64,000 bases of DNA from contig DAOMOX010000001.1 of assembly GCA_035444565.1 (NCBI GenBank), forward strand, positions 322,335-386,334. The letters are read 5' to 3'. How positions within the stretch are numbered: the first letter of the stretch is position 1; the number at the start of each line of letters is the position of its first letter. The notes under the pieces are model-generated. The model was not told the origin of the DNA. It made no database searches and saw only the letters and a program-made list of their open reading frames with translations. Shown here piece after piece: positions 3,994-43,724 of this stretch. Source of the DNA: Candidatus Dojkabacteria bacterium (GTDB lineage Bacteria; Patescibacteriota; Dojkabacteria; B142; OLB20). Made by a program: the position numbers and the translations under genes.

Positions 3994-6084
3994 TCAATTT
4001 AAACCCTTCATGGAGAAGCTTATTCTACCATTTTCTAATTTTATTACTTTAACTTTTACAGTTTGTCCTTCTTTAACGATTTCTTCAGGATTTGAAACAA
4101 ACTTATCGCTCATTTCTGATTTGTGAACCAACCCCGAGATGTTTGGAGTTACGTCTACAAATGCTCCGTATTCTTTTACGGAAGCTACTTTACCCTCATA
4201 TACCCTGCCAATTTCAGGTTCTACCACAATATCCTCTACCATAGCTTTGGCAAGTCTTCTCTGCTCTTCATCCATCGAAGTGATCGTTACGGTTCCATCG
4301 TCTTGAATATCTATCTCTACATCACCACCTGCTTTTTCTACAATTCCTTTTATTACCTTCCCTCCTGGACCAATTAATTCACCAATTTTTTCTTGAGCAA
4401 TTTTAATAACATCAACTTTAGGTGCATATTCGCTTACCGATTTCCTAGGTTCTGCAATTACATCTGTCATTGCTTTCAAAATTTCAAGTCTAGCTTGTTT
4501 TGACTTTGTGAAAGCTTCCTTCATAATCTCTACAGGAATACCTCTGAGTTTGTTGTCTAGCTGAATTGCTGTAATTCCCTTGTCAGTACCAGTAACCTTG
4601 AAATCCATATCTCCATAGAAATCTTCAACATCTTCAAGATCAACTATTAATTTATAGGTTTTCTCGTCTTTGTCTGTTACCAATCCCACAGAAATTCCAC
4701 CAACTGGTGCTTTGATTGCAACCCCTGCATCCATCAATGCCAATGTTGTTCCGCAAGTTGCAGCCATCGAACTTGAACCCTGTTGTGACAATATTTCTGA
4801 AACTACACGAAGGGTGTAAGGGAATTTATCGACTTCAGGAATCATTTTTAGTAATGCGTTTTCACCGATATTTCCATGACCAACTTCTCGTCTACCTGGA
4901 ATATAATTAAATCTTCCAGCCAACCCTAGTGAATAGTTCGGTCCATTGTAATGGTGCATCCATCTCTTTGCATCTTCTCCTTCAAAACTTTCTAGTTGTT
5001 GTACGAGTCTAGTAGACCCTAATGTGACTACTGAGAGACATTGAGTGTTACCTCTTTGGAAAATTGCGGATCCATGAACTCTGGGTAGTACTCCAACCTC
5101 GATATAAAGTGGTCTGATTTCATCCAACTTTCTTCCAGTAACTCTTTTCTCCTCAGTAAGTATAAGATTTCGAACATATTTTTTAGCGACATATTCTAAG
5201 GCGGATGCAATAGAACCGGCATCCCAACCCTCTTCATCTTTATGACTCTCTAATACTTCATCTCTAATTGCCTGCATTAAGTTATCCCTATTTTCCTTGT
5301 CTAGCATTGCCTGCTCTAACTTCTGTATGTATTTGTCTTGAAGGTCTTTTATAATTTCTTCATTTGGTGTTTGGTCTACAAATTCAACCTTCTCCTTGCC
5401 CATTTCTTTAGTAATTTCTTCCTGAACATCAAGCAATGGTTTCATCTCTGCCAATGCGAAATCAATCAAACCAAACATTTTTTCTTCAGGATATTCATTA
5501 CCAAAACCCTCGATATTTAAGATTCTCTTGTCGTTCCTAGCCGAAATAATGAATTCAGAATCAAATTCGTCAGTTTCTGTCAAATTTGACGGATTTAAGA
5601 TCATTTCACCATCTTTTACTCCAACAACAACACTAGCAACAGGTCCCATAAATGGAACATCTGAGTTCATAAGTGCAAGTGATGCTGATGTAACAGCCAA
5701 AGTCTCTGGATCATGAACATTATCGTAAGCCAGCACTGTTACAGTAACACTAACTTCATTTTTGTAGCCGTGTGGAAATAAAGATCTTAGTGAATGGTCA
5801 ATTTGACGTGCCTTTAAGACCGCATCGTCACTTGGCCATCTTTCTCTTTTCTGAAATCTGGATCCAGAAATCCTTCCACCTGCATAGAATTTCTCAATAT
5901 ATTCTATTGATAGAGGGAAGTAATCTAAATTTGGGTTTTCTCTACCAACTGTTACGATAGTAAGAACTACAGTCTCTCCCATTTGAGCCCATACTGTAGA
6001 ATTCGCTCTTGGTGCAAGTCCGCCGAGTTTAAAAGTCAGCTTTTTGCCGTTAAAGTCTATGGATTTCGTGTATTGTTTATCCAT
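3994..6084 (-). CDS. pnp: Polynucleotide phosphorylase (PNPase)
   Basis: 696 aa. Two RNase PH-like halves, then KH (KIGELIGPGGKVIKGI) and S1 (GKVASVKEYGAFVDV) C-terminal domains. Confidence 0.9.
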   Translation of the reverse strand: MDKQYTKSIDFNGKKLTFKLGGLAPRANSTVWAQMGETVVLTIVTVGRENPNLDYFPLSIEYIEKFYAGGRISGSRFQKRERWPSDDAVLKARQIDHSLRSLFPHGYKNEVSVTVTVLAYDNVHDPETLAVTSASLALMNSDVPFMGPVASVVVGVKDGEMILNPSNLTETDEFDSEFIISARNDKRILNIEGFGNEYPEEKMFGLIDFALAEMKPLLDVQEEITKEMGKEKVEFVDQTPNEEIIKDLQDKYIQKLEQAMLDKENRDNLMQAIRDEVLESHKDEEGWDAGSIASALEYVAKKYVRNLILTEEKRVTGRKLDEIRPLYIEVGVLPRVHGSAIFQRGNTQCLSVVTLGSTRLVQQLESFEGEDAKRWMHHYNGPNYSLGLAGRFNYIPGRREVGHGNIGENALLKMIPEVDKFPYTLRVVSEILSQQGSSSMAATCGTTLALMDAGVAIKAPVGGISVGLVTDKDEKTYKLIVDLEDVEDFYGDMDFKVTGTDKGITAIQLDNKLRGIPVEIMKEAFTKSKQARLEILKAMTDVIAEPRKSVSEYAPKVDVIKIAQEKIGELIGPGGKVIKGIVEKAGGDVEIDIQDDGTVTITSMDEEQRRLAKAMVEDIVVEPEIGRVYEGKVASVKEYGAFVDVTPNISGLVHKSEMSDKFVSNPEEIVKEGQTVKVKVIKLENGRISFSMKGLN

Positions 6085-6281: not shown

Positions 6282-8387
6282 TTATCTCGCTTTATACTGG
6301 AAATAACCATTACAGTGAAGTAAATCACGAGAATAAAATCCTCCAACACATGCTCCAGCCTCGTTACTCCAAGTGCCTGTTGAAAAGGTATCAGGATCTT
6401 CGGTCTGATAGACAGTAGTTCCAATTGTAATCTTATCTACGTATACGTCCCTCTGAGTACCATCGTTAATAAATTTAATTTTTACCTGAGTTACATCAAA
6501 CGGAACGTTGTGTGTGTATCTATAATTCCCATATGTCGTTCCCATAACATCAAAAGTATGAACTGTAGGCTGTGTTGTTGTAGGATCACCTATTTTAATT
6601 TCTAGTTTCGGCCATACTCCTGATTCACTCCTGGGATATCTAGCCTTAGCTCTCACAATTATGCGTTTTGCACTTGGGTAGGTAGTAGTCGGAACAATTG
6701 TGCCAACTGATGTTGGGATTGGTGTATTATCAGGAGCATTTTCAGAGTTTAATTCAATTGCACCAATATCTGGCATTGATACTCTGGCACTCTTCAAATA
6801 ATCCTGTGATCTAACCGATGTAGGTATACCTGTGTTATTAGAAGGACCAGCACTTGTACCTGCATTTATCGAGATACTATTACTTATTGGATAATAATTA
6901 GCAACATTTACTGCTGTTAATAGCTCACTCAGATTTAAATTGTCTGGTCCAATATTTGGATATTTAATGTTTAAAGGAATCGTAGAATTAACCAATCCTG
7001 GATTATCCTGAAAAACATTACCGGTGCCTTTTATAGAGGTTGATAGTGCCTTAGGAAAAATATTATTACGCACTGTCAGGGCATCATTACCACTTAATTT
7101 GATTGTGATTTTTGATGTTGGGTTTTTTCTTCGATCAAATATGTTATTCTCTAATATTCCACTAACTTTAGGATCCCCACTTTTAGCTGCTTCATGCTGA
7201 ACGCTCAAAAGTGTAGATAATTCATTTCCCGCAATCAATGTGTTGTTTCCAAAATATATTCGATTATTATCGCCTATATGTGATTTATTTGAGCCAGTAA
7301 TAAAAAACCCCATATTTACTATCAAATTATTGTAAATGGCAATGTTTGTATTCATTACATTTCCTGTTTTTAGATGACCCTTTTCATTTCTAAGTCCAAA
7401 CCTCCAAAATCCTGTGGCATCGGTATCCTCATCTCCACCTGCCTTAGGTTTCTTCTCTTCAGGAGCGTAGAAAAGATTATTCCTTACTACTGCATCTTCA
7501 ACCATCCCAGCATAAAAGCTATTTTTGTTTCCAACTACTGTGTTATCTTCAAACAATAAGTCTTTTGAACCGGGCTGGGGTGCTAATTCACCCTCTCCCC
7601 ATGCAAAAGTATTACCTCTAACAACAGAATTCATCCCACCTATGGCTGCACTAATATTTACACAATATTTCAATTCTAATTCACTTAGTGGGGTATCTTT
7701 TGGTTGACAAGCACCTGGTACCCGAACATGATACTCATCTCCCACAGAAGTTCTGGTCATACTATTATTAAGAAATTGAAAATTATCCATTCTTGCAGGA
7801 TAATCACTTTCAGATTCATCAGGATTTGCATACAAACCAGATGAAATCGTCCAGTCAATGATTACATTTTTTACAGTCACATTCTTCATTGTTCCACCAT
7901 TCTCTGTAGAAATTCCCAAACCTCTACCACAAGAGTTTCTTAGGAATAGGCCATCAATAGTTACATTGTTAGTATTCCTTAGTGATAGCAGTGCAGCGAA
8001 TCTTCCTTGTGATGAACACCTACTATTCCATACATTTACAATATTGTCCCAGCTATTATTTAACATTCCAGGCGCAAAACCTCCGTCTATAATAGCTTTA
8101 TGACGATTTTCAGCTTTCCAAGTCAGTCCACTTTTTTCAATTCGAGAATATGCAGGATAAATACCATCTTTGAGAATAATTGTGTCGCCAGGAGAAGCTG
8201 AAGTATCGGCTTTTTTCATGGTTTTCCACGGACTAGTATTTGTACCTGCGTTGGTATCGGACCCATTTGGCGAAAGATAATAGATCGACGCAGCAGAATT
8301 ATCTTCAGGAGCTAAATCCCCCATGAATAAAACTAAATAAACAGACAGAGAAATCACCGATAATACAAGAACTATACCAATAAACAA
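6282..8387 (-). CDS. Secreted right-handed parallel beta-helix protein (DUF1565/pectate-lyase-like) with C-terminal beta-sandwich (possible CBM); paralog 1
   Basis: 701 aa. N-terminal TM/signal. YYLSPNGSDTNAGT...PWKTMKKA...PGDTIILKDGIY start typical of DUF1565 beta-helix proteins. Repetitive N-rich beta-helix rungs. No dockerin-like tail. Confidence 0.6.
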   Translation of the reverse strand: MFIGIVLVLSVISLSVYLVLFMGDLAPEDNSAASIYYLSPNGSDTNAGTNTSPWKTMKKADTSASPGDTIILKDGIYPAYSRIEKSGLTWKAENRHKAIIDGGFAPGMLNNSWDNIVNVWNSRCSSQGRFAALLSLRNTNNVTIDGLFLRNSCGRGLGISTENGGTMKNVTVKNVIIDWTISSGLYANPDESESDYPARMDNFQFLNNSMTRTSVGDEYHVRVPGACQPKDTPLSELELKYCVNISAAIGGMNSVVRGNTFAWGEGELAPQPGSKDLLFEDNTVVGNKNSFYAGMVEDAVVRNNLFYAPEEKKPKAGGDEDTDATGFWRFGLRNEKGHLKTGNVMNTNIAIYNNLIVNMGFFITGSNKSHIGDNNRIYFGNNTLIAGNELSTLLSVQHEAAKSGDPKVSGILENNIFDRRKNPTSKITIKLSGNDALTVRNNIFPKALSTSIKGTGNVFQDNPGLVNSTIPLNIKYPNIGPDNLNLSELLTAVNVANYYPISNSISINAGTSAGPSNNTGIPTSVRSQDYLKSARVSMPDIGAIELNSENAPDNTPIPTSVGTIVPTTTYPSAKRIIVRAKARYPRSESGVWPKLEIKIGDPTTTQPTVHTFDVMGTTYGNYRYTHNVPFDVTQVKIKFINDGTQRDVYVDKITIGTTVYQTEDPDTFSTGTWSNEAGACVGGFYSRDLLHCNGYFQYKAR

Positions 8388-8455
8388 TTTCCTTTTTATT
8401 TATATTGTTTTGAATAAATAAATTATCTAAATTAAATTTTTTAGTTACTTAGTCT

Positions 8456-10537
8456 TTATAATGCACAACTAGTCTTCGGATAATACCTCTGTGCAAATCC
8501 TATTCCAGCTGCTCCAAAGTCTGCAATATTTAACTTCCCATCTCTATTTACATCTCTTCCTCCACAAGAACCATACTCAACATCTTTATCTGCACAAGTA
8601 TTTTTTCCAGTTCCATAGCTTTTAGCAAATTCTGCAAAGTCAGCAATACTGAATTTTCCATCTCCATCCACATCAGCTTTACCACAGATATTCCCTGTAA
8701 CTGGAAGTGTTGGTGTGGCACTTGGAACTGGTGTCAGTGCATTTGATGGTGTTGGTGTTGTACTTGGAGTAATTGAAGGCCCAGGTGTTCGAGTTAATGT
8801 CGGAGTTAAAGATGCACCAGGTGTTTGAGTTGGCGTCGCGGACTGTATTGGTGTTGGGGTACTGGTGTTATAGACCCCTCCGAACTCTATTGCCCCTATA
8901 TCAGGAGTTCCTGTCCTGGTATTTCTCAAAAAATCTTGCGATCTCACTAATTGTGGGATATTAGTTTGGTTAGCACCAGTCCCATTTGATCCTGTATTTA
9001 TTGCGGGACTATTTTGTTTTAATCGATAATTATTAATGTCTAAAGCAGCCCTTAATGCTGCGATATCTAGTGTCTCAGGTCCGATATTTGGATAAACAAG
9101 ATTCAATTCTATTAATGAGTTTACTAATCCAGGATCGTTAGTATAAACATCTCCTGTTCCTTTAACTGAATTGTCAACATTTGTTGGTAATATATTATTT
9201 CTGCGTAGGAATTGGTCATTTCCACTCAGTTGGACATTAATTCTAGCTGATGGATTCTTTCTTCGGTCGAAAATATTATTTTCCATGATTCCTGTTAACA
9301 CTCCATCACCTGAAGATCCTCCCCCATGCTGGATGTGTAGGAGCGAATCCAGTTCCTTTCCAGCAACCAAAGTATTATTTCCAAAGTATATTTGTCTGTT
9401 GTCCCCTATGTGACTACCATTTGTCCCTGTAATAAAGAATCCCATATTAACTATTAAATTATTATAGATAGCAATATTTGTATTCATTGTAGTGGCCTCA
9501 TCCGTATGCCCCTTTTCATTTCGTAGTCCAAGTCTCCAATACCCAGTGGCCTCACTATCTTCATCACCGCCAGCTTTGGGTTTTTTCAATTCTGGGGCAT
9601 AGAATGTATTATTTCTTGCTATAGCATCCTGTACCATTCCAGCATAAAAACTATTTTTATTTCCAACTACAACATTATTTTCAAATAAAAATCCTTTGGA
9701 CCCTGGTTGGGGAGCCAATTCACCTTCACCCCATGCAAATACATTTCCTCTTATAATTGAATTCACTCCACCAAAAGAGGCACTAATATTGACACAATAC
9801 TTTTTAATCTTTTCGTTCTCAGGAGTCGTTTTCGGCTGACAAGCACCTGCCACCCTGACATTATATTCGTCACCTATAGATGTTCTTGTCATAACGTTAT
9901 CAATAAACTGAAAATTATTCATTTTTGTTTGAAATACATCTTTTTGACTGAAAGCCGGCTCTGCATATATACCCGAGGTAGAAGTCCAATCTATCATCGA
10001 ATTTTTGATGGTAATGTTATTGGCAGTTGCACTTGTTGTAGACGTGGAAACTCCTATCCCTCTACCACAGGAATTCCGTATGAAAAGACCATCAATTGTC
10101 ACGTGATCAGCATCTCGAATAGCCAATAAGGCAGCAAACATCCCTTTGTTTGAGCATTTTGTATTCCAAACTGAAACGATATTATTCCAGTTGTTATTCA
10201 ACATCCCCGGAGCGAAGCCCCCATCAATTATAGCTTTATGCTTATTTTCAGCTCTCCAAGTAACGTTCGATTTCCTAAGGGTGATGTAACCGGAATAGAC
10301 ACCATCTTTAAGAACAACAGTATCGCCAGGAGAAGCGCTTGCATCAGCCTTCACCAAAGTTTTCCATGGACTCGAAGTTGTCCCTGGGTTGCTATCGGAT
10401 CCATTTGGAGATAAGTAGTAAATTGTTGCTGCCGAGTCATCCTCGGGTGACCACTCTTGGAACACTAATAAACTCGAAACCATAAGGACTAGTATCCCTA
10501 TTACTGCTAAAGCTAGTGTAAATACTGGTTTCCTCAT
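8456..10537 (-). CDS. Secreted parallel beta-helix protein with Thr/Pro linker and C-terminal Cys-containing dockerin-like Ca-binding module; paralog 2
   Basis: 693 aa. About 70% identical to paralog 1 in the beta-helix part. C-terminus DVDGDGKFSIADFAEF...DVNRDGKLNIADFGAA has two dockerin-type DxDxDG loops plus 4 Cys. Confidence 0.6.
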   Translation of the reverse strand: MRKPVFTLALAVIGILVLMVSSLLVFQEWSPEDDSAATIYYLSPNGSDSNPGTTSSPWKTLVKADASASPGDTVVLKDGVYSGYITLRKSNVTWRAENKHKAIIDGGFAPGMLNNNWNNIVSVWNTKCSNKGMFAALLAIRDADHVTIDGLFIRNSCGRGIGVSTSTTSATANNITIKNSMIDWTSTSGIYAEPAFSQKDVFQTKMNNFQFIDNVMTRTSIGDEYNVRVAGACQPKTTPENEKIKKYCVNISASFGGVNSIIRGNVFAWGEGELAPQPGSKGFLFENNVVVGNKNSFYAGMVQDAIARNNTFYAPELKKPKAGGDEDSEATGYWRLGLRNEKGHTDEATTMNTNIAIYNNLIVNMGFFITGTNGSHIGDNRQIYFGNNTLVAGKELDSLLHIQHGGGSSGDGVLTGIMENNIFDRRKNPSARINVQLSGNDQFLRRNNILPTNVDNSVKGTGDVYTNDPGLVNSLIELNLVYPNIGPETLDIAALRAALDINNYRLKQNSPAINTGSNGTGANQTNIPQLVRSQDFLRNTRTGTPDIGAIEFGGVYNTSTPTPIQSATPTQTPGASLTPTLTRTPGPSITPSTTPTPSNALTPVPSATPTLPVTGNICGKADVDGDGKFSIADFAEFAKSYGTGKNTCADKDVEYGSCGGRDVNRDGKLNIADFGAAGIGFAQRYYPKTSCAL

Positions 10538-10586
10538 AACTAACGATAATAATTATTAAATATCTAAATTTCTTTATACTTCAATC

Positions 10587-12566
10587 TTATATTGCGCAGC
10601 TTAATTTCGGATAATACCTCTGTGCAAATCCTATTCCGGCTGCTCCAAAATCTGCTATATTTAATTTCCCATCTCTATTTACATCTCGACCACCACAAGA
10701 TCCATATTCAACATCTTTATCTGCACATGTATTTTTTCCTGTTCCGTAACTTTTAGCAAACTCTGCAAAATCAGCAATACTAAATTTTCCGTCTCCATCG
10801 ATGTCTGCTTTCCCACATATATTTCCCGTAATTGGTGGAGTTGGAGTATTTGACGCAGCAAGAGGTGGTGTTGGCTTCAAAGTTAGAGTCGGTGTCAATG
10901 TTGGGGTGGACCCAAGACTTGTAGTAGGTGTTGGTGATGTTTGCACTTGTGTAGCTGTCACCAAAGGCGTAGGAGTACTGGTATTGTATACACCGCCGTA
11001 TTCGACTGCCCCAATATCTGGATTTCCTACTCTACTATTTTTGAAAAAATCTTGTGATTTCGCTAACTGTGGAATTTGATATGTAGTATGAGTTGTTGTA
11101 CTAATGCCTGCATTTATTGCTGGACTCGATTGTTTCAATCTGTAATTATTAAGATCCACAGCTGCACGCAAAGCAGTCATGTCAACAGTTGCAGCACCTA
11201 TTGCAGGTATTGGATAATTCAACTGAACCAATGAATTTTGCAATTCCGGATTCGTTGTATAGATATCACCAGGTCCTTTGGTATTGCTTTGAGCAGAAGC
11301 TGGTAAAATATTATTTCTGAATACCAAGTCATCATTCCCACTCAGCGCTGCTTTAATTGTTGCAGAAGGGTCTTTGCTTACATCGAAAATATTATTCTCA
11401 ATTAATCCTGTAATTTTGGAGTCAGACCCATCTCTGGGTGCAAAAACAATATTAAACAAATCATTTGTCTCTTTACCGGTCACTAATGTATTATGACCAA
11501 AATAAACGTTTGTAGTATTCGACGAATAATCTTTATGGTAACCGGAAAAAAGGAAACTGTTATTAAGTATTATATTGTTATAGTAAGCGACATTATTTAA
11601 TCCTGAGGCATAATTTCCCCAACGAGCATCTTTCTCATTACGTGACGAAATGTGCCAATCGTTCTCGTTACCGTTTTTCTTCTCCCAGTGGGTATTTGGA
11701 TTAAGTTGTGATTCAGGAGCCCAGAAGAGATTATTGCGCACAATCACACCATCGGCCCAACCATTATAAAAATTGTTTTTATTTCCAATAATAATATTAT
11801 CTTCAAATAATAGGTTTCGAGAACCCGTCATTGCAATTTCTCCACGTCCCCAAGCAATGATATTGCCTCTCACTACCATGTCCTCACCACTCATATGAAT
11901 ACTAATGTTTACATTGTAGTCATTGCTTGTATATACAGTATATTGATCGTTAAACGAAATTCTTGTAAGTTCATTATTTATCATCTGCAAACCTTTAGTC
12001 TTTCCAGAAACGTAAAATCCAGATACAAAAGTCCAATCAATTCTATTATTTAAAAACTTCGAGTAGTTAACATTCTCGGCAACTAAAACACCTCGACCAC
12101 AGGAGTTTCGCAAGAATAACCCCTCTACCTCAACATTATCAGCCGAAACCGCTACTAACGGAGACCACATCCCTATATTTTTACATTTAGAATCCCAGGC
12201 TGAAACAATATTCTTCCACTCCCCATTAAGTAAACCAGGTCCAAAACCTCCGTCGATAATCGCTTTATGTTTGTTTTCTGCTCTCCAAGTGGTATTGGGT
12301 TTATTGATATTAAAATATGCGCTATATGTACCGTCTTTCAGGATAACAGTATCTCCTGCAGAGATACTACTCATAGCCTTAGAGATAGTCTTCCAGGGAG
12401 ACGAGTTACTTCCGTTATTAGAATCATTCCCATTTGGGGAGAGATAATATACTGATGCTGCGCTATCGTCTTGTGGTGCCCTATCCTGATAAAACAAGAA
12501 TGCGGTGATTGCCAACAAAAAAATACCTAAGGAAAATAATCCTAAAACTACGGCTTTTTCTCTCAT
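10587..12566 (-). CDS. Secreted parallel beta-helix protein with C-terminal dockerin-like module; paralog 3
   Basis: 659 aa. Same N-terminal YYLSPNGNDSN signature. C-terminal 79 aa nearly identical to paralog 2. Confidence 0.6.
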   Translation of the reverse strand: MREKAVVLGLFSLGIFLLAITAFLFYQDRAPQDDSAASVYYLSPNGNDSNNGSNSSPWKTISKAMSSISAGDTVILKDGTYSAYFNINKPNTTWRAENKHKAIIDGGFGPGLLNGEWKNIVSAWDSKCKNIGMWSPLVAVSADNVEVEGLFLRNSCGRGVLVAENVNYSKFLNNRIDWTFVSGFYVSGKTKGLQMINNELTRISFNDQYTVYTSNDYNVNISIHMSGEDMVVRGNIIAWGRGEIAMTGSRNLLFEDNIIIGNKNNFYNGWADGVIVRNNLFWAPESQLNPNTHWEKKNGNENDWHISSRNEKDARWGNYASGLNNVAYYNNIILNNSFLFSGYHKDYSSNTTNVYFGHNTLVTGKETNDLFNIVFAPRDGSDSKITGLIENNIFDVSKDPSATIKAALSGNDDLVFRNNILPASAQSNTKGPGDIYTTNPELQNSLVQLNYPIPAIGAATVDMTALRAAVDLNNYRLKQSSPAINAGISTTTHTTYQIPQLAKSQDFFKNSRVGNPDIGAVEYGGVYNTSTPTPLVTATQVQTSPTPTTSLGSTPTLTPTLTLKPTPPLAASNTPTPPITGNICGKADIDGDGKFSIADFAEFAKSYGTGKNTCADKDVEYGSCGGRDVNRDGKLNIADFGAAGIGFAQRYYPKLSCAI

Positions 12567-12648
12567 TTGATAATTAGTGAATATATTCAGTTTATTATAA
12601 TATTAATAAATCATCAAATCTTAAGTTACTCTAAAAAGAATGACTCAT

Positions 12649-14976
12649 CTACAATGAACAACTCGGTGCTGGATAGTACCTCTGAGCGAACGCTGAAAAA
12701 TCAGCAATAGAGACTTTTCCATCATTATCTCGATCTATTCCCCCGCAAGGTCCGTGGTTTACACCTCTATCTGAACAACTACTTTTGTATTTTCTTGCAA
12801 AATTAGAAAAATCATACAAATCAAACCTTCCGTTACTATCCAAATCTGCTGGACCGCATACAATTGCATTTACATTTGTGGGTGTAACAGTGGATGGTGT
12901 CACAGAAATACTTGGTCGTGCTGTAGGAGTTGTAGATGTAACAGGCTTAATTGTCGGAGTAACCGAGACATTTGGACTAACCACAGGACTCGAAACAGGG
13001 GTGCTAGGCCTTGGTGTAGGAGTATTAGAAGGAGTTGTGCCCCCAGTCTGCTGAGCCTTTACCATTGCACTATGAGCATTAATTCTCTTCCCTGTTACTA
13101 TTTTTCCAGATAGCGCAGGTAAAGGATCCCCTGTTTCTAAAATAATATTTTGCACTTGTGTGGTAGTCAAACTTGGCTTATAACCCCAAATTAAACCAGC
13201 CAATCCGACGACGTGGGGAGTAGCCATAGAAGTTCCTTGAAAAAATTCATATTTATTACTCATTCCATCAGAGTAATGAGCAATATTTAAATCCTCGATG
13301 AAACAGCCCATGTATACGTTATCGGCTGCATTTGTATTCCATACAAACCGTAGTCTCATGTTCTCAGTTAAAAATTTTTGAGAAACTGGCACACTATCAA
13401 AATAATATTGAGATACTCCACTCTCGAGTGTATCCCCGGTTAACGCATCTAGAACATGTTCGTTCCATCTAAAGGCAAAGGTTGGAGCACCTGGGAAAGG
13501 TATAGACTCGAAGTTGATACCATCCGCACTCATTTGTAATTCAATATTATCCCATGGTTCAACTGAATCATATTCCGTATCACACAAGGCAACAAAACTT
13601 ATAGAAGCATTATTCTTTTTCAAGTTTGCTTTTGGAGATGTAATATAGTTATTCGCTTGATTGGTATATGGGGGTGCATCCTTCTCTGTTTTTAATAAAT
13701 TCCCAACAGATTCATCTAGGTATAAAGTTCCCCATTTAGGGTTTGTGCCTCCTGTAGTCCATCCTGTCGGCAAAGCAGGTGCTTGTGCATTATTAAAGTT
13801 TTCATCCATCAATTTCTCATGTGAGACAGAACTATAGATTGATTGTCCAGGAGCTGCTATATCAACACGGCCTAATCCATAATCAGAGAAATCCGCCAAA
13901 CTATCGTTTTGGTCTGTTGCAGCTACGCAAATAATATTCGCCGAGTCGTAGTCACAAGGATATCCACTCAAGGTGTTATGATCCCTATTTGAATTTCCAG
14001 CCGATGCAACGAATAATCCAGGGTATGCCTCTATAGCCTGTTTCATTGCATAGTCATACGAAGGACCTCCAAAACTAGCATTAATAACTTTTGCACCATT
14101 GTATTTGGCAAAATTAATAGATTTGACTATTCCTATAGATGTTAATTCTGTCTTTATTGCCATAATTTTGGCATTTGGTGCAACCCCCACTATTCCATAG
14201 TTGTTATTCTTGGCGGCAGCAATAGTACCTGCAATATGTGTTCCGTGTGAAGAATTAGTAGGCAATGGAATTTTATCGTTGTCTTCGAAATCATAACCAT
14301 ACATACATCCACCTAATGTTTGATTGTTTTCATTTTTACAATTCTGTCCATTCCACATATTTGCCTTTAAGTCAGGGTGGTTATAGGCAACACCCGTATC
14401 TATAACTGCGACAATAATTTCACCATTTATCCCTTCATTCACTGCCCAAGCCTCAGGCGCATCGATATCGGCATCCGCTACAGACGGACTCCCCTCTATC
14501 ACTTGACCAGAATTGTGTAAACCCCAAAGCTTGTCTTTATCGGGATCGTTTGTATTTATTGAAGCATACCTGTAGATATAGTTAGGCTGAACGAATTCAA
14601 CATTCTCATCTAATTTCATTTCGTTAATAATTTCATCAACATTTCTATCAGTTCTAAAGAGTTGCACATTTGAGGATAAATCAGCGTCAACATCTCTAAC
14701 TTCATGCTTATTCATAAACATCCACAGCTTAGGAGCAACCAAGGAAGATTGTAGATTGATTTTTTCCTTTTTATATTTAACAATAAATTCTCCAGGTACA
14801 ACATTTAGGTCTGTATCCTCCGAAATAGATTCTGTTGGAGCTTTTGCATTAACATCGTCAATACCTGCACTATAATTCCCAGGTGAGAAATCTCTAAATA
14901 TAAAATAAGTCGCTACACCTACTACTATTAGGAGGAATAGCCCTAGGGAGAACATTATTCGAACTGCTGTTTTCAT
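12649..14976 (-). CDS. Subtilisin-like serine protease (peptidase S8) with I9 propeptide, Pro/Thr/Ser linker and C-terminal dockerin-like module
   Basis: 775 aa. Catalytic triad motifs DTGVAYNHPDL, HGTHIAGTIAA, GTSMATPHVVGLAGL. C-terminal CGPADLDSNGRFDLYDF...DRDNDGKVSIADFSAF shows the same Cys/dockerin pattern. Confidence 0.8.
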   Translation of the reverse strand: MKTAVRIMFSLGLFLLIVVGVATYFIFRDFSPGNYSAGIDDVNAKAPTESISEDTDLNVVPGEFIVKYKKEKINLQSSLVAPKLWMFMNKHEVRDVDADLSSNVQLFRTDRNVDEIINEMKLDENVEFVQPNYIYRYASINTNDPDKDKLWGLHNSGQVIEGSPSVADADIDAPEAWAVNEGINGEIIVAVIDTGVAYNHPDLKANMWNGQNCKNENNQTLGGCMYGYDFEDNDKIPLPTNSSHGTHIAGTIAAAKNNNYGIVGVAPNAKIMAIKTELTSIGIVKSINFAKYNGAKVINASFGGPSYDYAMKQAIEAYPGLFVASAGNSNRDHNTLSGYPCDYDSANIICVAATDQNDSLADFSDYGLGRVDIAAPGQSIYSSVSHEKLMDENFNNAQAPALPTGWTTGGTNPKWGTLYLDESVGNLLKTEKDAPPYTNQANNYITSPKANLKKNNASISFVALCDTEYDSVEPWDNIELQMSADGINFESIPFPGAPTFAFRWNEHVLDALTGDTLESGVSQYYFDSVPVSQKFLTENMRLRFVWNTNAADNVYMGCFIEDLNIAHYSDGMSNKYEFFQGTSMATPHVVGLAGLIWGYKPSLTTTQVQNIILETGDPLPALSGKIVTGKRINAHSAMVKAQQTGGTTPSNTPTPRPSTPVSSPVVSPNVSVTPTIKPVTSTTPTARPSISVTPSTVTPTNVNAIVCGPADLDSNGRFDLYDFSNFARKYKSSCSDRGVNHGPCGGIDRDNDGKVSIADFSAFAQRYYPAPSCSL

Positions 14977-28639: not shown

Positions 28640-29788
28640 ATGCTTGTTAAACCTCAATCAACCAGTTTTGCGAAAATAAAAGTAGTAGGAGTTGGTGGTG
28701 CTGGCGGAAACGCTATAAACAATATGATCAAAAATCACGAAATTGAAGGCGTTGAATTCATTGCTGTAAATACAGATGCACAGGTACTCGCAAGCAACAG
28801 CGCAGAGATCAAATTGCGAATCGGAGAAGAGATTACAAGAGGCTTGGGTAGTGGAGGAAACCCTCAAATCGGGAGAAAAGCTGCTGAAGAGTCAGTCGAT
28901 TTACTACATGAACATTTAGCTGGTGCTGATATGGTTTTCATTACCGCCGGTATGGGTGGTGGAACTGGAACTGGTGCCTCTCCAGTAATTGCCGGAATTG
29001 CAAAAAATCTAGGTGCACTTACAATTGGAATCGTAGAGAAACCCTTCAATTTCGAAGGTCGAAGAAGGATGGAGACCGCAATACAAGGTATTGCAGAAAT
29101 TAAAGACAAAGTCGACACACTAATCGTTGTTCCCAATCAAAGATTACTTGATGTAATCGAAAGAAACATTTCTTTCATGGAAGCTATGAAAAAAGTTGAT
29201 GACGTCCTTGCTATGGCTGTTAAAAGTATTTCAGAACTTATCACTCAAGGAGGAATGATCAATGTAGACTTCGCGGATATTAAATCAATTATGTTAAACG
29301 CAGGGACAGCTTTGATGGGAATGGGTGTTGCTAGTGGTGAGGACAGAGCCAAAGAAGCCGCTAAAATGGCCATGGAGAGCCCCCTTCTCGAGGCTTCGAT
29401 AGAAGGTGCCACTGGAGTGCTCTTTAACATTTTCGGAGGCGATGACCTAGCAATGTACGAGATTGATGAAATTGCGAGAACTATCTCAGAAGTGGTTCAC
29501 CCTGATGCAAATATTTTCTTTGGTGCAAATGTTGACCCGTCTATGGACGAACAGTTACAGGTAACCGTCTTGGCAACTGGATTTGATACGAACAACCAAG
29601 GTATTCCTGTGCCCGCCGCACAGCCTAAACCAGTTCAAGAAGCTCCACGTAGTCCTGTTAATCCTATTAGAACACAACCTACAAAACCATCTAAACCAAT
29701 TTTTGACGACGATGACGATGATGATGACTACGATATGGACAGTTTGGAATCTACTCCATCATATATGAGGAGGAAGAAAGAGTATTAA
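28640..29788 (+). CDS. ftsZ: Cell division GTPase FtsZ (ORF opens at 28595; likely start at MLVKPQ)
   Basis: Tubulin signature GGGTGTGASPVIA. IKVVGVGGAGGNAINNMI. Poly-Asp C-terminal linker. Confidence 0.9.
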   Translation: MLVKPQSTSFAKIKVVGVGGAGGNAINNMIKNHEIEGVEFIAVNTDAQVLASNSAEIKLRIGEEITRGLGSGGNPQIGRKAAEESVDLLHEHLAGADMVFITAGMGGGTGTGASPVIAGIAKNLGALTIGIVEKPFNFEGRRRMETAIQGIAEIKDKVDTLIVVPNQRLLDVIERNISFMEAMKKVDDVLAMAVKSISELITQGGMINVDFADIKSIMLNAGTALMGMGVASGEDRAKEAAKMAMESPLLEASIEGATGVLFNIFGGDDLAMYEIDEIARTISEVVHPDANIFFGANVDPSMDEQLQVTVLATGFDTNNQGIPVPAAQPKPVQEAPRSPVNPIRTQPTKPSKPIFDDDDDDDDYDMDSLESTPSYMRRKKEY

Positions 29789-30648
29789 ACAGGATTCGCC
29801 ACTACAACAAATCTATTCGCACTATTACCGTCAGGGTAACACGTGAAAAGTGTGAGAGTATCTTTGCCAATTTCTCCGGTAACTATTGAAACATCGTGAG
29901 GTTGTACAATCTTACTCTTTGCTACTCGATATTTGTATTCTTTTCCTTCCATCTTGACGATTACCTCATCACCAATTTTTACATTCTTTAATTCCGAGAA
30001 GGAAGCAGTTGGATCTTTTGTTCTTTCGTAATAATTTCCAGAAGCGCTATGACCATATATCACAGTATTATTTTTCATATCCGAGATTGGTAAGCCAGTA
30101 CCATTAAAATGTGCTAAACCACCTTCTAAGTAACTGTCATAAATTTCTTCTACTCCACTTTCGACATTTGCTATTACTCGAACGTCTTTAATGCCAAGTG
30201 ACGGAATTGATAATTGGAATTTACCTTTGTATTCATTACTAACTGGATCAGCTAAAAGTTGATTCGTTGCATAGGCTTCGTCTTTTAGCTCTTTAAAGTA
30301 TTCAGCTCCAGGGTTTGAAATGTACTCTGCTCTTGATACGTAGTTTTCGGAAGCAAGAGCAACATTTGTTGTATCGTAATAATCAACTTTTAGTTTTAGA
30401 TATTCTTTAAAATCAGGGAAGAATTGTTGATAAATCATTGTGAATCCCGCCACAATCAGAAAAACAGGAATCAATGCTCCAATGAATTTTGAGTTAATCA
30501 GGAATTCTTGAGTATTACCAACTACAGAAAATACAACATCACCAAGAGTAGTTTTCTTCTTTGGGAAATTATCATAATAATAGATGTTCGCCGAGGCAAC
30601 GGTGCCTACAGAGCGTACGGGGGCTTTAACGTACGAATACAGAGCCAT
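29785..30648 (-). CDS. Sortase family transpeptidase
   Basis: 287 aa. N-terminal TM. TVIYGHSAS (His) and C-terminal TLFTCYP (TLxTC catalytic Cys) motifs. Confidence 0.6.
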   Translation of the reverse strand: MALYSYVKAPVRSVGTVASANIYYYDNFPKKKTTLGDVVFSVVGNTQEFLINSKFIGALIPVFLIVAGFTMIYQQFFPDFKEYLKLKVDYYDTTNVALASENYVSRAEYISNPGAEYFKELKDEAYATNQLLADPVSNEYKGKFQLSIPSLGIKDVRVIANVESGVEEIYDSYLEGGLAHFNGTGLPISDMKNNTVIYGHSASGNYYERTKDPTASFSELKNVKIGDEVIVKMEGKEYKYRVAKSKIVQPHDVSIVTGEIGKDTLTLFTCYPDGNSANRFVVVANPV

Positions 30649-32537: not shown

Positions 32538-33881
32538 ATGAGGAAATTATTTAACGCACTAGTGATTGTGATTTTATTATCGCAAACTGCACTGACTGCA
32601 CACGCACAGGAAATCGAACCTTCCGCCACACCTGTCCCACAAGAGATAATTAATAAAGTGGTTAAGACTACTCCTGCAGACATACTTGTCTCGGGAGTTA
32701 ATAAATCAAACCAGCTTTCAGGTGAAATTGTTGCAGATTTTACAGAAATTCCTCCTAGTGCAGAAGTTCTTGACATTGATTTGATCTTCAATCAGGTCGG
32801 GACAAGTGAAGGCATTATTAAATTATTAAATAAGAGATCCTTTAGCATAATCGATAGCATTTCCTTGGGGAGAGAAGGTATCAAAACAACAACCCGTGTG
32901 GACACAACTGTAAAAGAGTGGATAACTAATCCAGAGAAGAATTTCGGGCTTGTATTTCAGACTAGTGAATTAGGAACTGATAGTGAAGTCACTTTTAGTG
33001 ATATCACATTCAACGTTGAGTATTACCTTCCTGATAGAACCAACCCAGAAATTACAAAACTAGACATAAAAATCGTTGATGCATTTACTACTCAAATTCA
33101 ATGGGAAACCAACGAACCTGTAATTGTGAATGTCAAATACGGAAAGACATCGAATTATGAAAAGGATGTGGCTGGTGAAATAGAGTTTGCAGATTCTGGG
33201 GTGGTGAGATTAACAGATTTGAGTGAAAACATCACCTACCATATGAAATTCTACGCAAAAGACTCTAGCGGAAATACCGCAGAAACAGCGAACACAGTTT
33301 TTACAACAAACAAAGGGACAACTACAAATGCCATCACCGAGGATCAAGCTGTACTCGCACCCAGATTATTAAATTACGAAATAGTCCCAGAAAAAAGCCA
33401 TTACAATGTTGAACTAGCCTGGTCAAAAAGTGAATCTACCAACATCACGGGTTATGTACTATTTCGAAACACTGGAGACGGAGAATATTCAGAATACTCA
33501 CGATTTGATAGTGCCGTTACTAGGTATACTGACACCAAGGCAGAATCGAACACCACTTACAGTTATTATGTTATCGCATATTCTGGTACTGTCCAATCAA
33601 GTCGTTCTCCGGTTGTACAAGTTAAAATCCCTGAGGGTTCGAACGTCTTGGGAATTGATAGTATGTTTGAGAGAGGGAATTCGAATTTAGCAATCTTCTT
33701 TATCTTGTCTGGATTCGCAATATTATTAGGAGTTAGCTACTTTGTCTGGAAAAAAGTCCGCCTCAACATGGCTTATAATGAAAAACTCAACCGACACTCT
33801 AGACTACACAATGTACTACACGACCCTGATTATTATATTAATGGGTACGAAGATTCTGTTATCGAGAAAGTAAGTGACTGA
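32538..33881 (+). CDS. Cell-surface protein with signal peptide, fibronectin type III-like domains and C-terminal TM anchor
   Basis: 447 aa. Signal peptide LTAHAQE. FN3-like segments. Hydrophobic LAIFFILSGFAILLGVSYFVW near the C-terminus. Confidence 0.45.
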   Translation: MRKLFNALVIVILLSQTALTAHAQEIEPSATPVPQEIINKVVKTTPADILVSGVNKSNQLSGEIVADFTEIPPSAEVLDIDLIFNQVGTSEGIIKLLNKRSFSIIDSISLGREGIKTTTRVDTTVKEWITNPEKNFGLVFQTSELGTDSEVTFSDITFNVEYYLPDRTNPEITKLDIKIVDAFTTQIQWETNEPVIVNVKYGKTSNYEKDVAGEIEFADSGVVRLTDLSENITYHMKFYAKDSSGNTAETANTVFTTNKGTTTNAITEDQAVLAPRLLNYEIVPEKSHYNVELAWSKSESTNITGYVLFRNTGDGEYSEYSRFDSAVTRYTDTKAESNTTYSYYVIAYSGTVQSSRSPVVQVKIPEGSNVLGIDSMFERGNSNLAIFFILSGFAILLGVSYFVWKKVRLNMAYNEKLNRHSRLHNVLHDPDYYINGYEDSVIEKVSD

Positions 33882-42847: not shown

Positions 42848-42919
42848 CATTTAACTAAATAAAAAACACGCACTATGAAACGTGCGTCTATGTATATGTA
42901 TGTTATTTAGTTAAATAAG
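42848..42919. promoter_or_regulatory. Nested palindrome in the rpoB upstream / divergent intergenic region
   Basis: Arms CATTTAACTAAATAA (42848-42862) and TTATTTAGTTAAATAAG (42903-42919) are inverted repeats. They enclose the hairpin ACGCAC-TATGAAAC-GTGCGT (42868-42887). Confidence 0.3.
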
Positions 42920-43085: not shown

Positions 43086-43724
43086 TTGAGAATTTTTAAT
43101 ATGAAAAAGTTATTATTTACGTTTTCACTGGTTGTACTATCTTTATTAGTCCTCCCAACTTCTGTTTATGCCTACACTGTTTCGCCTGATTCTGGATCTT
43201 ATGCTCCTGGTGACGAACAAACAATCGCTATACTTGCTTCCCCTCCAGGAGAAACGTCTACATTACAGCTTAGACTTGCCGTTGTAAATGCTACCATTGT
43301 TCCTGGTTCGATAAATACTTCTGCTGCAGAAGAAAATGGATATCTTTTTATAGGTGTTTGTCCAGACAATACTAAGTATACAACCACAACGCTTTGTATA
43401 GACGTTGCCAAAACGACAGGAATGATTGCAAATGGAGATTTGTTAGGTCAGTTTAAGATTAAATTTAACTCCGGTGTTTCTTCGGCCACACTAGTTACAA
43501 ATACTGAAAATGGTTACTTGATTGGTAGTAGTGTCCAACCAGATGAAGGTAGAGGTCTTGGATCCTACCTTGTTAGCGTAATAAATACACCAACACCTAC
43601 AGATTTGCCAGTAACAGGAATAGAGGATTACCCTGTATTAGTTGTCGCAGGAGGTGTTTTCCTAGTATTCGTTGGAATGGGCTTCTTTATCGTTAGATCA
43701 AGATCACAGAGTTTACAATCATAA
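43086..43724 (+). CDS. LPXTG-motif cell-wall-anchored surface protein (sortase substrate), possible cohesin-like beta-sandwich
   Basis: 212 aa. Signal peptide. C-terminal sorting signal LPVTG + hydrophobic stretch VLVVAGGVFLVFVGMGFFIV + basic tail RSRSQ. Confidence 0.65.
   Translation: MRIFNMKKLLFTFSLVVLSLLVLPTSVYAYTVSPDSGSYAPGDEQTIAILASPPGETSTLQLRLAVVNATIVPGSINTSAAEENGYLFIGVCPDNTKYTTTTLCIDVAKTTGMIANGDLLGQFKIKFNSGVSSATLVTNTENGYLIGSSVQPDEGRGLGSYLVSVINTPTPTDLPVTGIEDYPVLVVAGGVFLVFVGMGFFIVRSRSQSLQS

Follow-up and report, generated by a model that had tools for sequence, protein, structure and literature searches.

The 64,000-nucleotide stretch of Candidatus Dojkabacteria contig DAOMOX010000001.1 analyzed here (positions 322,335 to 386,334 of the forward strand; hereafter, the window) encodes a small surface protein with a predicted cohesin-like fold, a sortase, and three secreted proteins with dockerin-like tails (Table 1). 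The gene of the small protein lies at 43101-43724 on the + strand and encodes 207 amino acids (aa) from an ATG, with the stop codon at 43722-43724, as seen from the open reading frame (ORF) listing and the translation. A first-pass annotation of the window had given the length as 212 aa. The ORF itself exists, and its listed start, TTG 43086, is merely the first possible one. Since the homologues all begin at MKK and the deposited identical protein is 207 aa long, ATG 43101 (MKKLL...) was taken as the true start and the longer version was abandoned. The identical 207-aa sequence is present in the databases as HRN85804.1/HRP51038.1 of Candidatus Dojkabacteria, a lineage belonging to the Candidate Phyla Radiation (CPR), and is labelled 'hypothetical protein'.

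The layout of the protein is that of a sortase substrate, with an N-terminal signal peptide and a C-terminal LPXTG signal that is kept in the homologues. Residue A24 at the end of the signal peptide never varies among the close homologues and shows a conservation of at least 90% across an alignment of 109 family sequences, a Pro/Thr linker (NTPTPTD) connects the beta domain to LPVTG, and R199 of the positively charged tail is invariant within the close family. The description of a small LPXTG-type surface protein with a signal peptide in the first-pass annotation is therefore accurate: all the sequence strings that it quoted are present, including LPVTG, the helix and the RSRSQ tail. Among all six-frame ORFs of the window, the canonical sorting signal (LPXTG, hydrophobic stretch, positive tail) was found in this protein only. 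The NCBIfam LPXTG-tail model matched the window protein only below threshold, and Pfam Gram_pos_anchor matched 17 of the 109 family members at E<=1.

The sortase with a TLxTC motif reported earlier is indeed encoded in the window, 12.5 kb from the cohesin-like gene. It carries the catalytic His/Cys/Arg triad (in IYGHS, TLFTC, and NRFVV, respectively) and scores above the cut-off of TIGR01076. The nearest NCBIfam class model was that of class C (78 bits vs. a cut-off of 160), and the protein remained below every class cut-off. The signals across the family are mostly not LPXTG; LPNTA, LPxTA, and LPxTS are equally common, and about one-quarter of the short proteins carry a membrane helix but lack any recognisable sorting motif. 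LPNTA-type or variant anchors are found, for example, at 7391-7990 of locus L005, 9439-10017 of L009, and 10001-10606 of L049. Such signals hint at sortases with LPNTA-type specificity in these lineages.

A word-indexed search with the cohesin-like protein retrieved only seven close homologues. A third search with the 109-sequence profile, in which candidates were picked by shared words, essentially returned the known close set again, and a scan of a genome collection with a narrower family alignment gave two loci. An exhaustive profile search over 1.84 billion cluster representatives (50% identity clusters) assigned 217 representatives to the family at E<=1e-3 and 107 at E<=1e-10. This number, together with the sorting signal kept in the seven close homologues, ruled out a chance ORF. 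Most members are about 200 aa in size and share the layout of the window protein, with tails that differ (LPxTG, LPxTA, often as LPNTA, LPxTS, or a bare helix). In the 109-sequence alignment, the sole invariant columns are two cysteines, C87 (43359-43361) and C99 (43395-43397), and A24, C87, C99, Y139, and P170 are the sole columns conserved to at least 90%. The cohesin-like domain was matched by no Pfam or NCBIfam model in the window protein and by no Pfam model in the 109 members, where the recurrent weak Pfam matches covered the LPXTG anchor and generic Ig-like first strands only.

The structure of the protein was modeled using AlphaFold2 (AF2). With only eight sequences (the close homologues) the predicted local distance difference test score (pLDDT) was 43.9 and the model was discarded; the 109-sequence alignment was needed. 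The model obtained with it had a pLDDT of 93.3 and a predicted template modelling score (pTM) of 0.71, with all five models above 92, and contained a compact all-beta domain spanning residues 25-158. When this model was compared with the PDB by Foldseek, cohesins filled ranks 1-9 and most of the top 50. The best match was 6kge_A, CohA2 of Clostridium acetobutylicum, with an E-value of 2.4e-5, a target-normalised TM-score of 0.64, and a root-mean-square deviation of 3.7 Å over 151 columns. The query-normalised TM-score was lower (~0.45) because 70 of the 207 modelled residues belong to the signal peptide and the anchor. Other top matches were 5nrm_A (Acetivibrio cellulolyticus ScaB Coh6), 2vn6_A (C. 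cellulolyticum), 4uyp_C (ScaC), and 4fl4 (CipA/SdbA), and lower in the list stood the autonomous cohesin ScaG (4n2o, 4wkz), the sortase-anchored ScaE cohesin 2zf9 (ranks 18 and 27), the Archaeoglobus fulgidus cohesin 2xdh, and the C. perfringens cohesin-like modules 2jh2, 2vo8, and 2w1n. Cohesins of types I, II, and III were thus all among the matches. The predicted domain has the form expected of a cohesin, a nine-stranded beta-sandwich (jelly-roll) of ~140-150 residues that can be superposed on solved cohesins.

The cohesin-like fold had been the weakest claim of the first-pass annotation. In the light of the model quality and of the Foldseek ranking, it has become, as far as modelling goes, the claim best supported by computation, and the comparison proposed there as a check placed cohesins, and not a pilin fold, at the top. 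We consider it very likely that the gene encodes a sortase-dependent surface protein with a cohesin-type fold.

The fold also bears on two other readings of the protein. As a small LPXTG protein with a beta-sandwich, in a window whose sortase is nearest to the class C model, it could be a subunit of a sortase-assembled pilus or fibre, joined by a bond between the LPVTG threonine and a lysine in the subunit that follows. The 109 sequences, however, have no conserved lysine and no column for a pilin motif or E-box, the fold matches are cohesins and not CnaA/CnaB pilins, the sortase gene is not adjacent and its product lies below all class cut-offs, and the window contains no second pilin-like substrate. 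We rejected this reading as very improbable. The same sandwich is found in wall proteins of the YcnI/reeler type that bind a metal or small ligand, and both YcnI (8um6, 7me6) and reeler (3coo, 2zot) entries appeared in the Foldseek list at E-values of about 1e-3. These entries ranked below more than ten cohesin entries. YcnI/DUF1775 proteins bind copper via the N-terminal histidine of the mature protein; the mature N-terminus of the window protein is Tyr25, and the family has no conserved histidine column. A metal- or ligand-binding wall protein of this type was likewise rejected, as the least probable of the alternatives considered.

The dockerin-like modules of the three window proteins are 70-77 aa in size and are located at the C-terminus behind a Pro/Thr-rich linker. 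They follow the pattern C-G-x-x-D-[VIL]-D-[GS]-[DN]-G-[KR]-F-x-[IL]-x-D-F...Y...C ... C-G-G-x-D-[VR]-[ND]-[RN]-D-G-K-[LV]-x-I-A-D-F...Y-Y-P-x-x-S-C, in which the loops DxDGDGKxxxxD and DxNRDGKxxxxD are each followed by a helix. Each half thus consists of a Ca loop of 12 residues, in which positions 1, 3, 5, and 12 are acidic or amide, and a helix, which is the arrangement of dockerins. In the same way, the modules as a whole have the two tandem loop-helix repeats (D-x-[DN]-x-D-G-x-x-x-x-x-D), the size of ~70 aa, and the C-terminal location after a Pro/Thr linker that characterise dockerins. When the module of 8456-10537 was scanned alone, it matched Pfam Dockerin_1 (PF00404) with 24.4 bits against a cut-off of 22.9, and 16 of 19 aligned modules matched this family (best 3.8e-7); in whole-protein scans the match was sub-threshold, at about 18 bits. 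The module profile gave full-length matches to the solved dockerins 2y3n_B (4.4e-5), 4fl4_A, and 5nrm_B in the PDB. Four invariant cysteines bracket both Ca-loop repeats in the 19-module alignment, which suggests two disulfide staples.

The invariant cysteines of the dockerin-like modules and of the cohesin-like domain imply extracellular oxidative folding. As a separate observation, a gene for a DsbA/thioredoxin-like protein (4038-5003) lies near the cohesin-like gene in L013.

The hypothesis of the first-pass annotation was that the window encodes three dockerin-bearing hydrolases of a cellulosome-like system. Three proteins with a C-terminal dockerin-like module are present, but the designation of all three as hydrolases did not hold, as one is an S8 protease and two are Pel9A-like. 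Similarly, the term cellulosome-like is appropriate in the architectural sense and not for the cargo, which would comprise a protease and pectate-lyase-like proteins instead of cellulases. In a fourth, Pel9A-like beta-helix paralogue (6282-8387, - strand; the N-terminus, listed from a TTG, is provisional), a CBM60 domain (Ca-dependent xylan-binding, 4.9e-10) replaces the dockerin-like tail, which looks like a swap between substrate targeting and cell tethering.

The two module families are connected by gene fusions. A cohesin-like domain and a Cys-stapled dockerin-like module occur in the same chain in 16 of 156 representatives, that is, in 16 of the 34 that are longer than 245 aa. The usual order in these fusions is signal peptide, cohesin-like domain, sorting motif, one or two predicted membrane helices (mostly two), a large ectodomain, and the dockerin-like tail. 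The sorting motif, of LPxTG/LPxSG type (LPLTG, LPMTG, LPVSG), is present in about half of the fusions, and the rest have no motif. An internal LPxTG/LPxSG is found in P0079 (L005 8001-10241), P0053, P0085, P0107, P0114, P0127, and P0154 (L012 10001-12601). In P0027 and P0066, a membrane helix and a Cys-rich Kazal-like region are followed by two or three tandem cohesin-like domains and a dockerin-like tail; this architecture resembles a small adaptor scaffoldin. A standalone cohesin-like gene of 190-200 aa with an LPNTA- or IPPTA-type anchor is located directly upstream of a fusion in L005, L009, and L012, the last of which has two fusions in succession.

The association was found from both sides. 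A metagenome scan with the dockerin pattern only yielded nine loci with strong modules, four of which are short Dojkabacteria enzyme arrays like that of the window. Two others (L019, L020) contain a cassette of a standalone cohesin-like gene and a cohesin-dockerin fusion, and in L021, a 2-kb contig, a dockerin-ended ORF is followed by two cohesin-like ORFs. On the cohesin side, loci were picked blind to their dockerin content. One of these picks, P0032 in L013, consists of a membrane helix, an uncharacterised region, and a C-terminal cohesin-like domain, and is followed by a paralogue with a dockerin-like module. These adjacent paralogues (10001-11338 and 11477-12679) have similar N-termini; one ends in the cohesin-like domain, and the other has a dockerin-like module and then a Pro/Thr-rich tail. 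Another blind pick, P0017 (L049/L050), is one of three tandem cohesin-like genes, directly after which come the genes for a 757-aa Pel9A-like beta-helix protein and a 133-aa dockerin-like protein. The 757-aa protein, an orthologous beta-helix enzyme, shares both the ...APDDSAA... N-terminal motif and the dockerin-like tail with the window enzymes. The five other blind picks had no dockerin-like neighbour; their contigs were short or one-sided, or showed rpoB-type synteny.

Altogether, fusion or adjacency was seen in eight independent loci (L005, L009, L012, L013, L019, L020, L021, and L049), so the co-occurrence of the two families, proposed as a further check in the first-pass annotation, was supported at the level of fusions and loci. 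The cassette of L005, L009, L019, and L020 is situated immediately upstream of PNPase...MurJ, where the PNPase is 47-53% identical to that of the window, and in the window the slot upstream of PNPase-MurJ is occupied by the array of dockerin-tagged enzymes. Read from the sequences, these fusions and neighbourhoods are classical evidence for a functional link between the two module families.

A shared N-terminal feature was seen in the four paralogous secreted proteins of the window (6282-14976, - strand). They have an N-terminal hydrophobic helix and, 4-7 residues on, the motif [AS]P[EQ]D[DN]SAA, or SPGNYSAG in the subtilase. The [AS]P[EQ]D[DN]SAA motif is present in no other window protein. 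A helix with an xAPE/D..SA motif was also found after the second membrane helix of the cohesin-like/dockerin fusions (e.g., L005 8001-10241) and in L049 11286-13559. The motif may belong to an unusual region of signal-peptide cleavage, or it may serve for N-terminal sorting in a manner specific to the lineage.

Several results weigh against a cohesin-dockerin pair in the window. The window protein matched no Pfam family at E<=10, no Cohesin family was among the 25 Pfam families listed for the 109 members, and sequence searches of the PDB, by phmmer and by hmmsearch with the family profile, returned no cohesin. An alignment by hhalign with a CipA-type cohesin profile gave a probability of 0.15, with a profile that was narrow (Neff 1.7, five close CipA relatives). 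In the Foldseek list, the related sandwiches CLIPPER, reeler, and YcnI were also present, ranked below the cohesins. The dockerin-like module matches generic EF-hand families with similar scores, and EF-hand proteins in the PDB as well. The cohesin-like gene is located ~28 kb from the dockerin-tagged genes, and in close relatives from the Dojkabacteria no dockerin gene was seen at 10 kb or less from the cohesin-like gene.

To judge the sequence-level negative, the searches were calibrated with a CipA type I cohesin as the query. This query found 16 PDB cohesin sequences at E<=1e-3 and missed the type II and III, archaeal, and C. perfringens cohesins that were listed by the fold search, and the cohesin search meant to provide a broad profile gave 11 close CipA relatives only. 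The negative is thus weak, because the profile was narrow and a type I query itself misses cohesins of types II and III. The window domain nevertheless gave no significant match to the cohesin model (PF00963), and no Pfam cohesin was detected in any window gene scanned. The earlier cohesin assignment consequently stands for the fold predicted by AF2 and Foldseek and fails for membership of the Pfam family by sequence. We describe the domain as cohesin-like by its modelled fold and do not place it in PF00963.

The genomic position and the sequence matches could also indicate a generic sortase-anchored surface protein, such as an adhesin or wall coat, whose sandwich binds another partner, e.g., a glycan or protein of a host-cell surface; the dockerin link would then reflect a shared neighbourhood of surface proteins. 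The N-terminal strands of some family members gave weak Ig-like Pfam matches (Ig_CFAP65_4th in 13 members; Cep192, BACON_2, and fn3_5 in a few), and some cohesin-fold modules have no known dockerin partner, as is the case for the glycoside hydrolase-associated modules of C. perfringens among the Foldseek matches. In both the window and the close relatives, the gene adjoins rpoB, far from the dockerin genes, and CPR bacteria are believed to rely on cell-cell contact (PMC6744442, PMC10633639). On the other hand, nearly half of the multidomain proteins with the domain carry a Cys-stapled dockerin-like module and have no other recurring partner, the adjacency recurs in loci reached from either module side, and the paralogues of L013, with their similar N-termini, are complementary, with a cohesin-like end in one and a dockerin-like module in the other. 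An adhesin or wall coat is a serious alternative, which we regard as less likely than not.

Our preferred reading, to which we assign a probability of about 50%, is that the gene encodes a minimal surface 'anchoring scaffoldin' with one cohesin-fold module, which captures the dockerin-like tails of secreted enzymes. That the window protein docks these tails is suggested, at the same even odds, by the fold and the gene association; we infer sortase processing, physical cohesin-dockerin contact, and Ca dependence. The protein would be exported by the Sec pathway and its signal peptide removed after VYA. The C-terminal helix and the positive tail would keep it in the membrane until the window sortase cuts LPVT/G between Thr and Gly and joins the protein covalently to peptidoglycan. 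These steps of export, membrane retention, and sortase transfer follow the established knowledge of sorting signals. The exposed beta-sandwich would then capture the disulfide-stapled dockerin-like tails, presumably in a Ca2+-dependent manner. At least one S8 protease and two Pel9A-like beta-helix proteins would form the cargo here and be kept on the very small cell instead of diffusing away. If the N-terminal helix of the enzymes is removed as a signal peptide, nothing but the dockerin would tie them to the cell.

In the fusions, the sorting signal and the membrane helices lie between the modules, so sortase could split a single precursor into anchor and cargo; fusions that lack the motif would present both modules at the membrane. 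Extending the anchoring scaffoldin to the family, we tentatively propose, as a possibility short of even odds, a cryptic cohesin-dockerin system in Dojkabacteria and related ultra-small bacteria that is unseen by domain models. It would pair a disulfide-bonded cohesin-fold anchor, attached through sortase or a membrane helix, with lytic enzymes that bear Cys-stapled dockerins. Some lineages would make one precursor with signal peptide, cohesin, LPxTG, two transmembrane helices, enzyme, and dockerin, cut 1:1 by sortase.

Table 1. Features of the window that bear on the cohesin-like protein and its candidate partners (positions are those of the window).
Feature	Position	Strand	Evidence and remarks
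Dockerin-tagged Pel9A-like/DUF1565 beta-helix protein, module ~8459-8689	8456-10537	-	Dockerin-module hidden Markov model (HMM) 4.5e-26; candidate cargo
Dockerin-tagged Pel9A-like/DUF1565 beta-helix protein, module ~10590-10820	10587-12566	-	Dockerin-module HMM 8.8e-26; candidate cargo
S8 subtilase, C-terminal dockerin-like module ~12652-12861	12649-14976	-	Peptidase_S8 1.1e-48; dockerin-module HMM 2.2e-27; candidate cargo
Sortase, presumed wall-anchoring transpeptidase	29785-30648	-	Pfam Sortase 7.8e-22; TIGR01076 71.9 bits vs. cut-off 39.35; IYGHS, TLFTC, NRFVV
Signal peptide, residues 1-24, predicted cleavage VYA/Y	43101-43172	+	Read from the sequence; modelled as helix 2-16 (AF2)
Cohesin-like beta-sandwich domain, residues 25-160, ~135 aa	43173-43580	+	AF2 pLDDT 94-98; Foldseek top matches are cohesins
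LPVTG sortase recognition motif, residues 169-173	43605-43619	+	Sequence; LP[VI]TG kept in close homologues
Hydrophobic membrane-spanning stretch (residues 179-198, 20 residues) and positive tail RSRSQSLQS	43635-43721	+	Sequence; modelled as helix 178-206
203-aa membrane protein, two membrane helices	43734-44345	+	Weak DUF5673 match; starts 9 bp downstream of the cohesin-like gene

The gene order around the cohesin-like gene is rpoB, the cohesin-like gene, the gene for the 203-aa membrane protein, a RodZ-like helix-turn-helix gene, dnaA, and dnaN. The order from rpoB to the RodZ-like gene is kept in L001-L004, L007, L008, L047, and L048, with relatives of the cohesin-like protein down to 46% identity. 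The 203-aa gene is probably co-transcribed with the cohesin-like gene, and its product is the more conserved of the two across the relatives: in L008 it scores 301 bits, against an identity of 46% for the cohesin-like protein. The MAG contig of L008 (CAZZFI010000083.1) is labelled 'uncultured Candidatus Saccharibacteria', yet has Dojkabacteria-type synteny and an rpoB fragment scoring 545 bits over 300 aa to that of the window; the contig may have been mislabelled, or its bin may be a mixture. Genes for MurJ and for a FemAB-family protein are likewise found in the window and are consistent with a peptidoglycan wall, possibly with interpeptide bridges.

A scan for promoters and terminators around the cohesin-like gene performed no better than on shuffled sequence, and an Rfam scan gave two tRNAs only. 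The 365-bp region between rpoB and the cohesin-like gene contains a terminator-like hairpin followed by a T-run (42866-42887, - strand), at a distance of ~130 nt upstream from where rpoB starts. The hairpin does not lie at the end of any upstream gene on the minus strand, and Rfam finds nothing there; it may be a leader or attenuator element of rpoB, or chance. The 447-aa protein of 32538-33881 (+ strand) has a classical signal peptide (…ALTAHA/QE) and one fn3 domain, with neither a sorting signal nor a dockerin-like tail, and is probably another surface protein.

Among described proteins, those that come closest are ScaE of Ruminococcus flavefaciens (type III cohesin, 2zf9) and Sca2 of the R. 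bromii amylosome. Both are single-cohesin proteins with a sortase signal that bind the dockerins of scaffoldins, enzymes, and peptidases; sortase attaches ScaE covalently to the cell envelope and the same attachment has been predicted for Sca2 (PMC5301203, PMC4611034). Like them, the window protein combines a signal peptide with a single cohesin-fold module and an LPXTG signal at the C-terminus, with the docking role here being a proposal. It differs from them in having no detectable sequence similarity to any cohesin and in the invariant Cys pair of the domain, which is paralleled by the four invariant cysteines of the partner dockerin-like modules. No X-module was identified beside the dockerin-like modules of the window and no multi-cohesin primary scaffoldin was seen here. 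Moreover, the host is a small-genome CPR bacterium and not a fibrolytic Firmicute, and the candidate cargo consists of a protease and pectate-lyase-like proteins and not of cellulases or amylases. The LPNTA-type signal variants and the fusions with internal sorting signals also set this family apart from known cohesin systems. The window protein thus appears, from its sequence and model, to be a sequence-divergent, sortase-anchored cohesin-like anchor, a new variant of a kind of cohesin anchor that is already known.

In being a single cohesin-fold module outside cellulose degradation, the window protein resembles the non-cellulosomal cohesins of A. fulgidus (2xdh) and of the C. perfringens toxin complex (2jh2, 2vo8, 2w1n). 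These non-cellulosomal cohesins match the Pfam cohesin model and form part of larger enzymes or soluble proteins, whereas the window protein is free-standing, predicted to be wall-anchored, and not recognised by Pfam. The fusions, in turn, have a counterpart in Amy4 of R. bromii, in which a cohesin is followed by a dockerin in one enzyme (PMC4611034). Like Amy4/Sca1 and adaptor scaffoldins such as ScaA and ScaB, which have both a cohesin and a dockerin, relatives of the window protein unite the two modules, in fusions with the order cohesin-like module, enzyme, dockerin-like module. In contrast to Amy4-type proteins, the cohesin-like module of the fusions is N-terminal and is set off by a sorting signal (in about half) and one or two predicted membrane helices. 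We know of no described cellulosomal protein with an N-terminal cohesin, an internal sorting signal, and membrane helices.

Sortases are widespread in CPR bacteria (PMC6744442), and dockerin-domain proteins have been annotated in CPR/Patescibacteria, one of them being essential in a cultivated Saccharibacterium (PMC10633639). In the literature searched, the coverage of which was incomplete so that an earlier mention elsewhere is possible, no cohesin partner or anchoring scheme was described for CPR bacteria. The present analysis provides a cloneable candidate in the form of a 135-residue domain and 70-residue tails, as well as a family of 217 cluster representatives that no Pfam or NCBIfam model matches. 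Should binding be refuted, these bacteria would still have, in this family, a widespread and unannotated class of surface proteins anchored to the wall. If binding is true, the cohesin-dockerin principle would extend to a superphylum whose members have small genomes and are believed to rely on other cells, current domain models would be missing a whole branch of cohesins, and small, disulfide-stabilised cohesin-dockerin pairs would join the protein-assembly toolbox. If the family reaches other CPR lineages, it could point to the partner of the 'orphan' CPR dockerin-domain proteins, including the essential one of the Saccharibacterium (PMC10633639). For the present bacterium, the window protein may well be the docking site, so far missing, by which secreted enzymes are kept on the cell, and a cryptic system of this kind, if true, would explain how cells with minimal genomes hold degradative enzymes at their surface, possibly against the envelope of a host.

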